Below are positions 25,401-29,365 of a stretch of 29,365 nucleotides of DNA, piece by piece (the stretch's first letter is position 1; each line of letters starts with the position of its first letter). The stretch comes from Escherichia coli (lineage in GTDB: Bacteria > Pseudomonadota > Gammaproteobacteria > Enterobacterales > Enterobacteriaceae). The DNA lies in NCBI RefSeq assembly GCF_003334315.1, contig NZ_QOWR01000057.1. One strand, 5' to 3'. The position numbers are program-made.

Positions 25401-28400
25401 GCCCGTGCCATTTCACTGGTTGAAGAGACACGTCCATTATTACCAGGCGTGCGCGAAGCCGTTGCGTTATGCAAAGAACAAGGTTTATTGGTGGGGCTGG
25501 CCTCCGCGTCACCACTACATATGCTGGAAAAAGTGTTGACCATGTTTGACTTACGCGACAGTTTCGATGCCCTCGCCTCGGCTGAAAAACTGCCTTACAG
25601 CAAGCCGCATCCGCAAGTATATCTCGACTGCGCAGCAAAACTGGGCGTTGACCCACTGACCTGCGTAGCGCTGGAAGACTCGGTAAATGGCATGATCGCC
25701 TCTAAAGCAGCCCGCATGCGTTCCATCGTCGTTCCTGCGCCAGAAGCGCAAAATGATCCACGTTTTGTATTAGCAGACGTCAAACTCTCATCGCTGACAG
25801 AACTCACCGCAAAAGACCTTCTCGGTTAATGACCAGGGGCAGTGATCTCGCTGCCCCTGGTTCTTTATCTGAATTTGCATTCAACTGACGGATTAATCGT
25901 CAATTTAAGAGAAAGAGTTACACCGTCACCACTTCCGTGCACTGTATAAAAATCCTATACTGTACGTATCGACAGTTTAGTGAGTTTTATCATGACGGCG
26001 GAAGGTCACCTTCTCTTTTCTATTGCTTGTGCGGTATTTGCCAAAAATGCCGAGCTGACGCCCGTGCTGGCACAGGGTGACTGGTGGCATATTGTCCCTT
26101 CCGCAATCCTGACGTGTTTGTTACCGGACATCGATCACCCAAAGTCGTTTCTTGGGCAACGATTAAAGTGGATATCAAAACCGATCGCCCGCGCTTTTGG
26201 GCATCGTGGTTTTACCCACAGTCTGCTGGCGGTATTTGCGCTGCTGGCAACCTTTTACCTTAAGGTTCCTGAAAGCTGGTTCATTCCGGCTGATGCGCTA
26301 CAAGGAATGGTGCTGGGTTATTTAAGCCACATACTTGCCGATATGCTGACACCCGCCGGTGTTCCCCTGCTCTGGCCATGCCGCTGGCGTTTCCGCTTAC
26401 CTATCCTGGTTCCCCAAAAGGGCAACCAACTGGAACGTTTTATCTGCATGGCATTATTTGTCTGGTCGGTATGGATGCCCCATTCATTACCCGAAAACAG
26501 CGCTGTTCGTTGGTCATCGCAAATGATTAATACCTTGCAGATCCAGTTTCATCGGCTTATTAAGCATCAGGTTGAATACTAAAAAGGCAAAAATCACCTT
26601 TCTGTAATAAGCAATTCCATTTGAATATAAGAGCCAGCTCACAGTTCTGTTAATCTTGCGCCAACACTATGACTGCTACGCAGTGATAGAAATAATAAGA
26701 TCAGGAGAACGGGGATGAACTTTCCATTAATTGCGAACATCGTGGTGTTCGTTGTACTGCTGTTTGCGCTGGCTCAGACCCGCCATAAACAGTGGAGTCT
26801 GGCGAAAAAAGTGCTGGTGGGTCTGGTGATGGGTGTGGTTTTTGGCCTTGCCCTGCATACCATTTATGGTTCTGACAGCCAGGTACTTAAAGATTCTGTA
26901 CAGTGGTTTAACATCGTTGGTAACGGCTATGTTCAACTGCTGCAAATGATCGTTATGCCGTTAGTCTTCGCCTCTATTCTGAGCGCGGTTGCCCGTCTGC
27001 ATAACGCATCTCAGTTAGGCAAAATCAGTTTTCTGACCATCGGTACGCTTTTGTTTACCACGCTGATTGCGGCGCTGGTCGGTGTGCTGGTCACCAACCT
27101 GTTTGGTTTGACGGCTGAAGGTCTGGTTCAGGGTGGTGCAGAAACTGCACGTCTGAACGCCATTGAAAGTAACTATGTTGGTAAAGTCTCTGACCTGAGC
27201 GTTCCGCAGCTGGTCTTGTCCTTTATCCCGAAAAACCCGTTTGCCGATCTGACCGGAGCCAATCCGACGTCAATTATCAGCGTGGTAATTTTTGCCGCAT
27301 TCCTCGGTGTAGCTGCGCTGAAACTGCTGAAGGATGATGCGCCGAAAGGTGAACGCGTCTTAACCGCTATCGATACCCTGCAAAGCTGGGTGATGAAACT
27401 GGTTCGCCTGGTCATGCAGTTGACCCCTTACGGCGTTCTGGCACTAATGACCAAAGTGGTTGCAGGTTCTAACCTGCAAGACATCATCAAACTGGGAAGT
27501 TTCGTTGTCGCGTCCTACCTCGGTCTGCTGATTATGTTTGCAGTGCATGGCATTCTGCTGGGCATTAATGGCGTGAGTCCGCTGAAGTACTTCCGTAAGG
27601 TATGGCCTGTGCTGACGTTTGCCTTTACCAGCCGTTCCAGTGCTGCGTCTATCCCACTGAATGTGGAAGCACAAACGCGTCGTCTGGGCGTTCCTGAATC
27701 CATCGCCAGTTTCGCCGCCTCTTTCGGTGCGACCATTGGTCAGAACGGCTGCGCCGGTTTGTATCCGGCAATGCTGGCGGTGATGGTTGCGCCTACGGTT
27801 GGCATTAACCCGCTGGACCCGATGTGGATTGCGACGCTGGTCGGTATTGTTACCGTTAGCTCCGCAGGCGTTGCCGGTGTCGGTGGTGGTGCAACTTTCG
27901 CCGCACTGATTGTGCTGCCTGCGATGGGCCTGCCAGTAACCCTGGTGGCGCTGTTAATCTCCGTTGAACCGCTTATCGACATGGGCCGTACGGCGCTAAA
28001 CGTTAGTGGCTCGATGACAGCTGGCACGCTGACCAGCCAGTGGCTGAAGCAAACCGATAAAGCCATTCTGGATAGCGAAGACGACGCCGAACTGGCACAC
28101 CATTAATTCTTATGCTGGCAACGGTCCGTTTCATATAGGGGCCGTTGCCTTACTTTTTAAATGTTCCATCGCGGCGATGCATACTGACTCATATTTAAAC
28201 AGATCGTCAGCGAAAAAAATGTCCAACTTATCAATACATTCCTGGCTCAATGAATGTGCCTGTAGCGAGAAGCTTAAAACCTCATACCCGAGACGTTTTC
28301 TAAGTGAACTATCTGGAATACTCATAATATCTTCAAGTATACCACTTCCCATTCCCGGAAGATTTAGTGGATTAAAAAGAAGATTGATATTAAGCATTGA

Positions 28401-29365
28401 TATTATCGAAGGAAACTTTAGGAGACTCTCATTTTTTTGAATCGCAGCAAAAATGCTCCCGACAGGATGTATATAATTTTGTTCATAGTATATAGTCCTT
28501 AAATAATGAATAACCAACCTGTTTTTTATATTGATCAAATTCGTCATTTTTTCTGGGCGAAACACAGAAGTGACATCCATTCCAATAAAATCTTTATTTA
28601 TACCTCTTATCCGAATTTCACTACCATAAAGATTATTAATTATTACTTTATATTTAACATTGTCCTGCAGATATGTATCAAAACTAAGTGCTGGCGCTCC
28701 TGGCTTTGAGGCATCATAGTTAATGTTAGACATATAGGCAATCATATAATTAAAATTTGATTCTGCTATTTCATCGCAGTCACATTGACCCGTTGATATA
28801 AAGAAAGTGAGTGCCGCCATGGTAGACTCAAGCCTTTCTTTAAAAGAGTCAAAAGCCAGACTTTTAATATTTAAATCACCATAATTACTCTGTATTAAGT
28901 TTGTAGAAAACATCTCCCACCTCATATTGTTAACAAAATTATTATCTCATTTAAATCTAAGTCATTTACAATATAAGTTTAAGAGCGACGCCACAGGATG
29001 AACTATCAAAAATAGCTCATCATGATTAGCAAAACTTAACCATTTTAAAATAAATAAACAATTAAAGAAAAAAGATCACTTATTTATAGCAATAGATCGT
29101 CAAAGGCAGCTTTTTGTTACAGGTGGTTTGAATGAATGTAGCAACGAAATACAGAATTTCAGGTGATGCTGCCAACTTACTGATTTAGTGTATGATGGTG
29201 TTTTTGAGGTGCTCCAGTGGCTTCTGTTTCTATCAGCTGTCCCTCCTGTTCAGCTACTGACGGGGTGGTGCGTAACGGCAAAAGCACTGCCGGACATCAG
29301 CGCTATCTCTGCTCTCACTGCCGTAAAACATGGCAACTGCAGTTCACTTACACCGCTTCTCAACC

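Follow-up and report, generated by a model that had tools for sequence, protein, structure and literature searches.

ydjO of Escherichia coli: a probably genuine but dispensable gene on an old AT-rich insert between cedA and tcyP, with a strain-private IS1 beside it

Results

The DNA analysed here, referred to as the window, is a stretch of 29,365 nucleotides from E. coli (assembly GCF_003334315.1, contig NZ_QOWR01000057.1). The open reading frame at 28131..28925 on its minus strand is ydjO, b1730 of K-12. Its product is 98 % identical to the K-12-type alleles and 92 % identical to the main cluster representative, and the matching E. coli records, K-12 included, annotate ydjO between tcyP and cedA. 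Counted from the first ATG (28925) the frame has 264 codons for amino acids, while RefSeq starts at the second ATG (28913..28911), which gives a YdjO of 260 amino acids with the stop TGA at 28133..28131. This TGA, at codon 261, cuts off the last seven codons of the K-12-type allele, the product of which has 267 amino acids. The features of the locus are collected in Table 1.

The gene lies on the strand opposite to tcyP, a conserved neighbour with which it is convergent, and on the cedA side an IS1 element takes over at the end of the window. The GC content of ydjO is 34.0 % (GC3 29.9 %), compared with 53.0 % (GC3 58 %) for tcyP and 48.7 % for the whole window, and the spacer upstream of ydjO (28914-29161) has 29.0 % GC. 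The initial annotation had described an open reading frame markedly richer in AT than the adjacent ydjN, with AT-rich DNA and then an IS1 on its upstream side. Both descriptions hold, as do the limits of 28926-29161 given for the spacer when the first ATG is used, with the left end of IS1 at 29162.

Table 1 Features at the ydjO end of the window
Feature	Position	Strand	Basis and remarks
tcyP (ydjN), cystine/sulfocysteine:cation symporter	26715..28106	+	463-aa ORF; annotated in matching E. coli records; 53 % GC
Last 7 codons (QNGPLPA + stop) of the 267-aa K-12-type ydjO allele	28110..28130	-	Translations and alignment
tcyP intrinsic terminator, hairpin 28117-28149 and T-run	28117..28160	+	-22.4 kcal/mol, z -4.25
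ydjO CDS, 260-aa allele	28131..28913	-	dN/dS 0.13-0.28 in frame; RefSeq annotation
12-bp direct repeat, downstream copy, TGACGATCTGTT on the minus strand	28198..28209		Brackets the 893-bp deletion of MOD1-EC7003
A7 homopolymer (T7 on the plus strand), codons 159-161 of ydjO	28432..28438	-	End point of several large clusters of truncated YdjO
Shine-Dalgarno-like AGGTGGGAG	28922..28914	-	Abuts the RefSeq start codon of ydjO; read from the sequence
AT-rich (29 % GC) upstream spacer of ydjO	28914..29161	-	Colinear with IS-free strains; matches the published 'promoter island' ydjO/cedA
Predicted sigma-70 promoter of ydjO, ATGACT-16-AATAAT	28938..28965	-	Consensus scan
20-bp imperfect palindrome ATGAGCTATTTTTGATAGTT, candidate regulator site	28991..29010	-	Allele alignment
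12-bp direct repeat, upstream copy, TGACGATCTATT on the minus strand	29091..29102		Brackets the 893-bp deletion of MOD1-EC7003
IS1 left end (IS1A-like), terminal inverted repeat then insA, ends at window edge	29162..29365	+	99-100 % identity to annotated IS1A

The two convergent genes had been thought to share a hairpin. Convergence is clear, whereas a symmetrical sharing is not what was found. The arms GGCAACGGTCC and GGGGCCGTTGCC of the hairpin at 28117-28149, which overlaps the 3' end of ydjO, are followed by a T-run on the plus strand, while the minus strand of the hairpin is without a U-tract. Since the U-tract is on the tcyP strand only, the hairpin is the intrinsic terminator of tcyP, and it has the build of a rho-independent terminator, i.e. 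a GC-rich stem followed by a U-tract close to the 3' side of the tcyP stop codon. It is common to ydjO only insofar as the last codons of ydjO cross the terminator; its 3' arm encodes a conserved A-T-A close to the C-terminus of YdjO. The E. albertii-type locus carries a homologous hairpin, and there the tcyP terminator is likewise embedded in the gene.

ydjO sits on an AT-rich insert of ~1.1 kb between the convergent cedA and tcyP. The filled site occurs in 4,265 of the 5,426 complete E. coli genomes (~79 %); the segment is absent in ~21 %. In the B2-type strains listed (536, ST131, ST1193), 46 bp and one terminator separate tcyP from cedA. Apart from B2 E. coli, cedA adjoins tcyP in Salmonella, Citrobacter, Enterobacter, Kluyvera and E. 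whittamii. A scan of species-representative genomes with a peptide pattern derived from the YdjO alignment gave no match, because the species representatives carry either the empty site or an overly divergent version. It was replaced by anchoring on CedA, which located the loci. In the CedA-anchored loci of species-representative genomes (n=54) the gap between cedA and tcyP was ~50-70 bp in almost all, and the terminator in these loci is positionally homologous to that of the empty site in Escherichia. By these comparisons the insert took the place of the bidirectional terminator that originally stood between the two genes. No mobility genes were found in the insert, and a repeat scan gave only short repeats at chance level. 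Searches of phage and plasmid collections returned no ydjO homologue, and none was found outside Escherichia.

Within the genus, a YdjO homologue with 38.6 % identity over 114 aa (E 1e-16) lies next to cedA, on its downstream side, in the type strain of E. albertii. A full-length copy of 257 aa was recovered with a degenerate two-motif DNA pattern on metagenome contigs; it is on the E. albertii-type contig OLIF01000019.1, has 32 % identity to YdjO over 241 aa (E 6e-36) and shares the synteny of E. coli ydjO. A 257-aa E. albertii protein with 32 % identity to YdjO was found independently with Foldseek. The N-terminal E. albertii fragment returned just one 79-aa fragment from a database of 5.8 billion proteins, and no match was obtained when the E. 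albertii locus was compared by blastn with the E. coli genomes. In the cryptic lineage Escherichia sp. MOD1-EC7003 only a deletion remnant of ydjO is left, with 893 bp lost between 12-bp repeats. The gene is thus present in most non-B2 E. coli and, in a much diverged form, in the E. albertii-type lineage, and is not strictly specific to E. coli; calling it an orphan is too strong in view of a syntenic homologue at 32 % identity. One further candidate for a distant homologue, P0014 (26 % identity, E 4.5e-35), was rejected as artefactual. The contig that carries it, L006 from run SRR33321306, proved to be the ydjO locus of E. coli in which A and G are interchanged, with 902 matches to that locus and 505 A-to-G and 369 G-to-A differences.

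The NG86 estimates of dN/dS among pairs of ydjO alleles were 0.13-0.28 (Fisher p 1e-5 to 1e-12), while four of the five other frames gave values of about 1 (0.7-2.9); the antisense frame whose third codon positions coincide with those of ydjO gave 0.21-0.46. ydjO accordingly appears to be a real coding gene, and the selection on its frame is real, though weak. In the comparison of E. coli with the E. albertii type, ydjO had a dN of 0.62 and a dS of 1.64, compared with 0.012-0.04 and 0.6-0.7, respectively, for the flanking genes. Within E. coli the dS of ydjO ranged from 0.02 to 0.50 and that of tcyP from 0.03 to 0.11. Judged by these values, ydjO appears to evolve many times faster than the neighbouring genes. 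In one allele, L007, dS was 0.74-0.9 in the N-terminal half and 0.08-0.16 in the C-terminal half; dN/dS was well under 1 in both halves of ydjO. It is possible that the very high dS stems from imported alleles such as L007 and not from a locally high rate. The alleles at this one fixed locus fall into classes at 92, 75 and 32 % identity, while the genes on either side are 90-99 % conserved.

ydjO is frequently broken. In a sample of 12 evenly spaced genomes carrying the gene, five had it annotated as a pseudogene. Clusters of truncated YdjO proteins end at the A7 run, among them P0055 with 2,273 member sequences, and also P0054 and P0056. Insertions of IS1, ISKpn26 and IS10 occur in or near the gene. 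A dN/dS as low as 0.15-0.28 in a gene with ~40 % pseudogenes is an uneasy mix, and ydjO may matter in some lineages or niches only.

YdjO is a soluble, acidic protein (pI 5.4) of ~29 kDa with neither a signal peptide nor a membrane segment, none of its hydrophobic segments being strong enough to span the membrane. The predicted fold consists of an N-terminal domain built of a helix, a five-strand meander and a helix, and of a helical C-terminal half, which was poorly modelled (pLDDT below 50). Pfam, NCBIfam, PADLOC, PHROGs and the PDB sequences held no match to YdjO, and searches against 1.84 billion representative proteins and the database of 5.8 billion proteins returned YdjO alone. With the E threshold relaxed to 1, the PADLOC defence models still left all three allele types unmatched, and Rfam gave chance-level matches only. 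In the fold search there was no convincing relative, and no nuclease, NTPase, TIR, Sir2 or toxin-like motif or fold was seen. The absence of a recognisable catalytic motif, noted from the DNA at the outset, is therefore confirmed and extends to domains and folds; no characterised family with catalytic residues emerged from Pfam, NCBIfam, PADLOC, PHROG, PDB or the fold search. Arguing from this absence, YdjO might act by binding and not by catalysis, in a niche-specific, dispensable role.

A LuxR-like helix-turn-helix, suspected by eye at residues ~204-230, was dropped since Pfam gave nothing even at E <=10. The orphans YahL and YjfZ (DUF2686) resemble YdjO in their length of 264-271 aa, their restriction to E. 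coli and Shigella and their unknown function (PMC11057252), but there is no similarity of sequence or profile. Kinship with them was rejected, as BLASTP gave E >=0.4, hmmsearch nothing and hhalign a probability of ~0.1 % or less. The N-terminal domain may be set beside other domains made of a helix and an antiparallel sheet, e.g. that of the type II secretion minor pseudopilin GspI. The function of ydjO is unknown also in the literature (PMC11057252), where the name b1730 led to unrelated papers only.

The hexamers of the promoter predicted for ydjO are the same as those given for this gene in the genomic SELEX catalogue of RpoD constitutive promoters, in which H-NS is marked within the ydjO-cedA spacer on the basis of K-12 data (PMC3946193). 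The ydjO/cedA spacer of K-12 is also listed as a 'promoter island', predicted foreign and H-NS-bound (PMC3661553 Table 1), and we infer that the coordinates of the K-12 island correspond to the spacer in the window. The palindrome ATGAGCTATTTTTGATAGTT, ~80-100 bp upstream of the start codon, is the sole upstream block that the E. coli alleles still have in common with the E. albertii-type locus. Published work has also described ydjO as co-regulated with ydjN, the gene (tcyP) that is induced when sulfur is limiting. As H-NS binding is seen in published ChIP and SELEX data, ydjO is, under standard conditions, probably silent or expressed at a low level, and it may be silenced in the present strain as well; no data on its derepression in hns mutants were found in the literature.

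The part of IS1 inside the window is its first 204 bp; the far side lies beyond the window end, where the element could border a rearrangement or a deletion. The left inverted repeat GGTGATGCTGCCAACTTACTGAT begins at 29162, and insA, with its GTG at 29217, is directed away from ydjO. The insertion point is 12 bp short of the hairpin of the cedA terminator and 249 bp upstream of the ydjO start codon. The IS1-ydjO junction was found in one piece in none of the 5,426 complete E. coli genomes, and the near-identical strain 2018-11-3CC is without IS1 at this position. The 248 bp from the start codon to IS1 (28914-29161) are colinear with IS-free strains; in the comparison with MB10 the ydjO side forms a match of 1,114 nt with 99.8 % identity that covers the spacer. 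The suspicion that IS1 had altered the upstream region is thus not supported: the published promoter and the conserved element are retained, and comparison of the junction with IS-free strains shows that IS1 merely parts ydjO from cedA and the cedA terminator. It is an ordinary insertion, private to the lineage of the present strain, which leaves the promoter region of ydjO intact. IS1 favours AT-rich targets, and other IS1 insertions are scattered across the ydjO-cedA region, some of them inside ydjO and cedA themselves.

Discussion

The best explanation of these observations, to which we give a probability of roughly 0.65, is that ydjO is a genuine but dispensable gene on an old insert and that the strain-private IS1 spares its promoter. 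An AT-rich segment of ~1.1 kb would have entered long ago between cedA and tcyP and replaced a single bidirectional terminator. It would have brought three working parts: a terminator for tcyP lying across the last ydjO codons, a sigma-70 promoter and a short conserved upstream element. ydjO has since been lost repeatedly, by nonsense mutations, by frameshifts (at the A7 run among others), by the microhomology deletion and by IS insertion, and the IS1 of the window would be one more event of this kind. This IS1 separates ydjO from cedA and from any cedA read-through and leaves the promoter and the conserved element untouched; any regulatory effect that it has on ydjO would be hypothetical. The initial annotation had seen in ydjO a horizontally acquired gene. 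Its foreign look is supported by the empty site that B2 E. coli and other Enterobacteriaceae show, and by the published listing as predicted foreign and H-NS-bound. The acquisition is, however, no trait of the present strain, but an old one that is shared within Escherichia.

It is unlikely that ydjO is instead a decaying relic frame in an H-NS-bound spacer, with selection acting on the DNA itself as a terminator, an insulator or a 'promoter island'. Pseudogenes in 5 of the 12 sampled genomes, the lack of the segment in ~21 % of the genomes, the recurrent IS insertions with one microhomology deletion, and the failure to find homologues or domains would all agree with such a relic. The terminator stem, moreover, accounts for the conserved C-terminal 'ATA', and dividing the ydjO dN of 0.62 between E. 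coli and the E. albertii type by the flanking dS of 0.6-0.7 gives a ratio near 1. However, the non-synonymous deficit is specific to the frame (dN/dS 0.13-0.28, with p down to 1e-12, compared with ~1 in four of the five other frames). The frame has stayed open over 257-267 codons across lineages which are 32 % identical, with motifs conserved over the full length, and both a Shine-Dalgarno-like sequence and a promoter are present.

A second explanation concerns the IS1, which may have changed the expression of ydjO by disrupting the H-NS nucleoprotein or by blocking read-through from cedA, so that the junction would be functionally important. We hold this to be rather improbable. The entire 248-bp spacer, with the promoter and the conserved element, is unchanged, although IS1 edges the H-NS-bound spacer 249 bp from the start codon and ~200 bp upstream of the -35 hexamer. 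The hairpin of the cedA terminator has a weak U-tract, and read-through into ydjO is therefore plausible in IS-free strains; insA, on the other hand, is directed away from ydjO, and no transposase read-through therefore enters the gene. It is well established that IS insertion activates bgl and that IS1 has polar effects. As in the cryptic bgl operon, where an upstream IS1 or IS5 relieves silencing by H-NS, the present IS1 lies in AT-rich, H-NS-bound DNA before a silent gene. Compared with bgl, it is farther from the promoter and private to one strain, further IS1 copies around ydjO fall inside genes, and there is no sign of activation. The insertion being private (0 of 5,426 genomes), there is no sign of selection for IS1 at ydjO, and the scatter of IS1 over the ydjO-cedA region fits target preference and not regulatory design.

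That ydjO is a gene of conflict, used in defence against phages or plasmids or in antagonism or immunity between bacteria, and kept polymorphic by frequency-dependent selection with the variable N-terminal domain as the specificity part, is very doubtful: its presence/absence polymorphism within E. coli, the deep allele classes (92, 75 and 32 %) between genes that are 90-99 % conserved, the limitation of the L007 divergence to the N-terminal half (dS 0.74-0.9 compared with 0.08-0.16), its frequent loss and the AT-rich, H-NS-bound DNA that it has in common with many defence islands are offset by the lack of PADLOC, PHROG and NCBIfam matches for the three allele types, by its being a single gene that has no partners and stands among housekeeping neighbours in every genome examined, by dN/dS well under 1 in both halves and by the lack of any nuclease, NTPase, TIR, Sir2 or toxin-like motif or fold. 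In a bolder form, and equally far from probable, the cedA-tcyP junction would be a long-lived polymorphism, upheld by frequency-dependent selection, in which an empty allele and recurrent knock-outs stand beside three or more deep YdjO classes. YdjO would then be a new single-protein conflict factor, directed against a phage, plasmid or competitor, with the fast-evolving N-terminal domain as its recognition module and the helical C-terminal half as its effector.

Taken as a genuine gene on an old insert, ydjO compares well with the H-NS-silenced acquired genes and 'promoter islands' of the yjgL, yhiS and appY loci. Like them it is low in GC and narrowly distributed, has an empty site that is ancestral, is occupied by H-NS according to published data and is listed as a promoter island together with predicted foreign genes. 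Unlike such islands, the ydjO insert consists of one gene and lacks mobility genes, a tRNA and attachment-site repeats. It is also old, being shared in a much diverged form with the E. albertii lineage, and it provides the terminator for the resident tcyP.

The case as a whole is already known and ordinary, and the findings on ydjO and its IS1 open no long-standing question. The present gene is the same as the published ydjO, in the same position between tcyP and cedA and with ~98 % identity to the K-12-type allele. It is one of the E. coli genes to which no function has been assigned. The refinements are that it appears to be a real coding gene, that it is carried by an old insert whose empty site is still segregating in E. 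coli, and that it has a homologue at 32 % identity in the E. albertii lineage. ydjO is in use as a PCR marker and has been described as a gene that E. coli and Shigella conserve and that is specific to them. This label is too simple given the ~21 % of genomes without the gene, the many pseudogenes and the E. albertii-type homologue. The diagnostic use of ydjO is affected accordingly, as the gene is missing in about one fifth of the complete E. coli genomes and is a pseudogene in 5 of the 12 sampled carriers. Beyond this, ydjO informs studies on the evolution and death of young, H-NS-bound genes.

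Identity and composition of the gene beside IS1

The open reading frame beside the left end of IS1 is ydjO (K-12 b1730, 'protein YdjO'), located in the conserved gene order hxpB-ydjM-tcyP / ydjO-cedA / katE. Several IS1-rich E. coli strains are approximately 100 % identical to the window. AGGTGGGAG directly precedes the start codon annotated in RefSeq. The GC content of ydjO is 34.0 % (29.9 % at third codon positions) compared to 53.0 % for the adjacent tcyP (ydjN), and that of the upstream spacer (28914-29161) is 29.0 %, with 48.7 % for the whole window. The initial annotation had described an AT-rich frame convergent with ydjN and flanked by AT-rich DNA and then an IS1, all of which agrees with the features found (table). 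YdjO usually has 267 aa; in the window strain a TGA at codon 261 shortens it to 260 aa, and the loop and 5' arm of the tcyP terminator carry the codons of the missing tail, QNGPLPA. ydjO is an already known y-gene, and as a foreign-looking gene with no assigned function it is already in the literature.

Elsewhere in the window, at 18875-20603 (+), two adjoining ORFs of 157 and 414 aa are found where the near-identical strain 2018-11-3CC has an annotated frameshifted pseudogene of espL1, a type III secretion effector gene.

Features of the ydjO region and insertion sequences found in it (window positions unless a locus is named)
Feature	Position	Strand	Remarks
tcyP (ydjN)	26715-28106	+	converges on ydjO
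Hairpin	28117-28149		T-run after hairpin on + only; -22.4 kcal/mol, z -4.25
ydjO ORF	28131..28925	-	264 aa counted from first ATG
ydjO RefSeq start	28913	-	second ATG; 260 aa; annotation of near-identical strains
12-bp direct repeat	28198-28209 and 29091-29102		two copies in intact locus
A7 run	28432-28438		ydjO codons 159-161
Promoter hexamers	28965..28938	-	ATGACT-16-AATAAT, consensus scan
Conserved block ATGAGCTATTTTTGATAGTT	28991-29010	-	also E. albertii-type contig (L068) 4712-4731 and E. coli GCA_025283635.1 (L007) about 3893-3912
IS1 left end	from 29162		insA from 29217, reads away from ydjO; window ends within element
IS1 within ydjO			strains ET490, Ec1120
ISKpn26 (IS5-like) within ydjO			
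IS10 within ydjO			laboratory-evolved strain
IS1 at cedA 3' end, inside cedA, upstream of cedA			three other strains

An ancient insert between tcyP and cedA

The ydjO segment is present in 4,265 of the 5,426 complete E. coli genomes, while the B2-type strains listed (536, ST131, ST1193) have 46 bp with a single bidirectional terminator between tcyP and cedA. Among 54 loci fetched from species-representative genomes with CedA as the anchor, a gap of about 50-70 bp was found in Salmonella, Citrobacter, Enterobacter, Kluyvera and Atlantibacter, and also in E. whittamii, Escherichia sp. E1V33 and two 'E. coli' representatives, with a terminator positionally homologous to that of the empty site in Escherichia. 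The empty site is therefore ancestral, and ydjO is carried by an insert of ~1.1 kb that replaced the ancestral cedA-tcyP terminator. The replaced stretch extends into the final codons of cedA, which encode QEGEV(T/A)E at filled sites and QENEVEE at empty ones, the latter matching Citrobacter and Salmonella; tcyP ends with a His codon at filled E. coli sites and with an Arg codon elsewhere (flank ends compared at L013 1895-1910 and L001 4150-4175, and at about 6240-6264 of L019 and L014). Both boundaries of the replaced segment thus lie inside the flanking genes. The horizontally acquired look noted initially is broadly supported by the ancestral empty site, the low GC content and the published foreign/H-NS listing, with the correction that the acquisition is ancient and shared within Escherichia.

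Nor is ydjO strictly an orphan, as it had been called. In the E. albertii type strain a homologue (38.6 % identity over 114 aa; the contig ends within the gene) lies immediately downstream of cedA, and a degenerate two-motif DNA pattern searched on metagenome contigs led to OLIF01000019.1 (204 kb), with the gene order chbG-cedA-[257-aa homologue]-tcyP-ydjM-hxpB. This contig is here termed E. albertii-type, since it differs from the type strain at one residue of CedA and at 4 of 132 residues of the YdjO N-terminus. Its homologue is 32 % identical to the window YdjO over 241 aa (E 6e-36), the gene has 34 % GC, and a homologous tcyP terminator lies within its 3' end. Foldseek independently returned a 257-aa E. 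albertii protein with 32 % identity. The insert predates E. coli. On the same contig (3326-4598) cedA directly follows chbG, and katE, which intervenes in E. coli, is absent.

In the cryptic-clade genome of Escherichia sp. MOD1-EC7003 (6262-6461 of its locus, L014) only the last 25 ydjO codons and ~75 bp of the distal upstream spacer remain, fused at the 12-bp direct repeat. As the intact locus has two copies of this repeat, the 893-bp deletion is attributed to microhomology.

Coding constraint and rate of change

A Nei-Gojobori comparison of the ydjO alleles of ten E. coli genomes gave dN/dS of 0.13-0.28 in the annotated frame (Fisher p 1e-5 to 1e-12) and 0.7-2.9 in four of the five other frames; the antisense frame with common third codon positions gave 0.21-0.46, as expected for such a frame. 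The low ratio is specific to the ydjO frame, which has therefore been under purifying selection, although weaker than that on tcyP, ydjM and katE (0.00-0.09). For cedA, which is too short for comparison, each class has 0-3 changes and the ratios are 0-0.29. Within E. coli the dS of ydjO (0.02-0.50) is several-fold above that of its neighbours (tcyP 0.03-0.11), and between E. coli and the E. albertii-type lineage ydjO has dN 0.62 and dS 1.64, compared to 0.012-0.04 and 0.6-0.7 for the flanking genes.

The L007 allele (75 % protein identity) is a mosaic, as its high dS (0.74-0.9) is confined to the first 160 codons, with 0.08-0.16 over the remainder. At this locus (4001-4804, allele P0050) the very divergent stretch, of ~65 % protein identity, begins ~60 bp before the start codon and ends near codon 160; nothing unusual is seen in the C-terminal half or in the flanking genes.

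Gene decay and the IS1 insertion

ydjO is often lost, a further correction to the initial picture. Among 12 filled-site genomes sampled at even steps along the similarity ranking, ydjO has an internal stop or frameshift and is annotated as a pseudogene in five, O157:H7 included. The large and independent truncated-YdjO clusters P0055 (2,273 member sequences), P0054 and P0056 end exactly at the A7 run, which suggests recurrent slippage frameshifts there, at the boundary of two predicted domains. Insertion sequences are found in the 1.4-kb ydjO-cedA region of unrelated strains (L002-L005; hits H71 and H90; PMC10044804), with IS1 at five or more positions.

In IS-free strains the cedA terminator hairpin, CTCCCGGcaaaaCCGGGAG, follows 12 bp beyond the position of the IS1 junction of the window, ...AATTTCAG|GGTGATGCTGCC. 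It had been suggested that the insertion may have altered the region upstream of ydjO. On the ydjO side this is not the case: the 248 bp from the start codon to IS1 are colinear with IS-free MB10, inside a 1,114-nt match of 99.8 % identity, and nothing was displaced. The junction was not found in one piece in any of the 5,426 complete E. coli genomes, three full-coverage matches having IS1 elsewhere in the region, and 2018-11-3CC has no IS1 at this position; the insertion is thus private to the strain. IS1 prefers AT-rich targets, and its location beside the AT-rich spacer is consistent with this. Transposase read-through into ydjO is excluded, since insA points away from it. It is possible that IS1 insulates ydjO from cedA read-through or disturbs the H-NS complex.

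Transcription and regulation

The initial annotation had ydjO and ydjN sharing a hairpin. A hairpin is indeed present at the junction, spanned by the last ydjO codons, but as its T-run is on the plus strand only, it is the intrinsic terminator of tcyP. In an ExPEC transcriptome in serum, ydjO and ydjN were both down at least 2-fold, along with the CysB regulon (PMC4145685, Table 1). Because, within 28104-28165, the terminator is embedded in ydjO, the ydjO signal may represent tcyP read-through antisense to ydjO rather than ydjO mRNA.

The hexamers found by the consensus scan are those of the constitutive RpoD promoter of ydjO in the genomic SELEX catalogue (PMC3946193), where H-NS is also marked for the spacer between ydjO and cedA. 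This spacer is a published 'promoter island' (PMC3661553); that listing gives it H-NS binding from two ChIP studies and an association with genes that two methods predict to be foreign. The candidate regulator site ATGAGCTATTTTTGATAGTT, a 20-bp imperfect palindrome, is located some 25-45 bp upstream of the -35 hexamer; when the upstream regions of the two E. coli allele classes and the E. albertii-type locus are aligned, no other block is conserved.

Properties of the YdjO protein

As initially noted, YdjO has no recognisable catalytic motif: profile and sequence searches gave no match in Pfam, NCBIfam, PADLOC, PHROGs or PDB sequences. There was also none in phage or plasmid collections, three 'plasmid' matches being mislabelled chromosomes (records >4.7 Mb). 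Only YdjO alleles and fragments were found by phmmer among 1.84 billion representative proteins and in a 5.8-billion-protein database. An apparent homologue of 26 % identity in the representative-protein library (P0014, E 4.5e-35) is an artefact, translated from a Logan contig (56313, run SRR33321306) in which A and G are swapped nearly throughout the E. coli tcyP-ydjO-cedA region (505 A-to-G and 369 G-to-A differences, 902 matches). YahL and YjfZ, other E. coli 'signature' orphans, showed no kinship to YdjO.

The AlphaFold model of full-length YdjO was poor (pLDDT 59). For residues 1-147, modelled with the E. albertii sequence added (pLDDT 77, pTM 0.75), the prediction is two helices, one long and one short, then five antiparallel strands in a meander and a further long helix. 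With a pI of 5.4 YdjO is acidic, and no membrane-like segment is present. Our best inference for YdjO is a cytosolic protein without enzymatic activity that is dispensable and made only once H-NS silencing is lifted.
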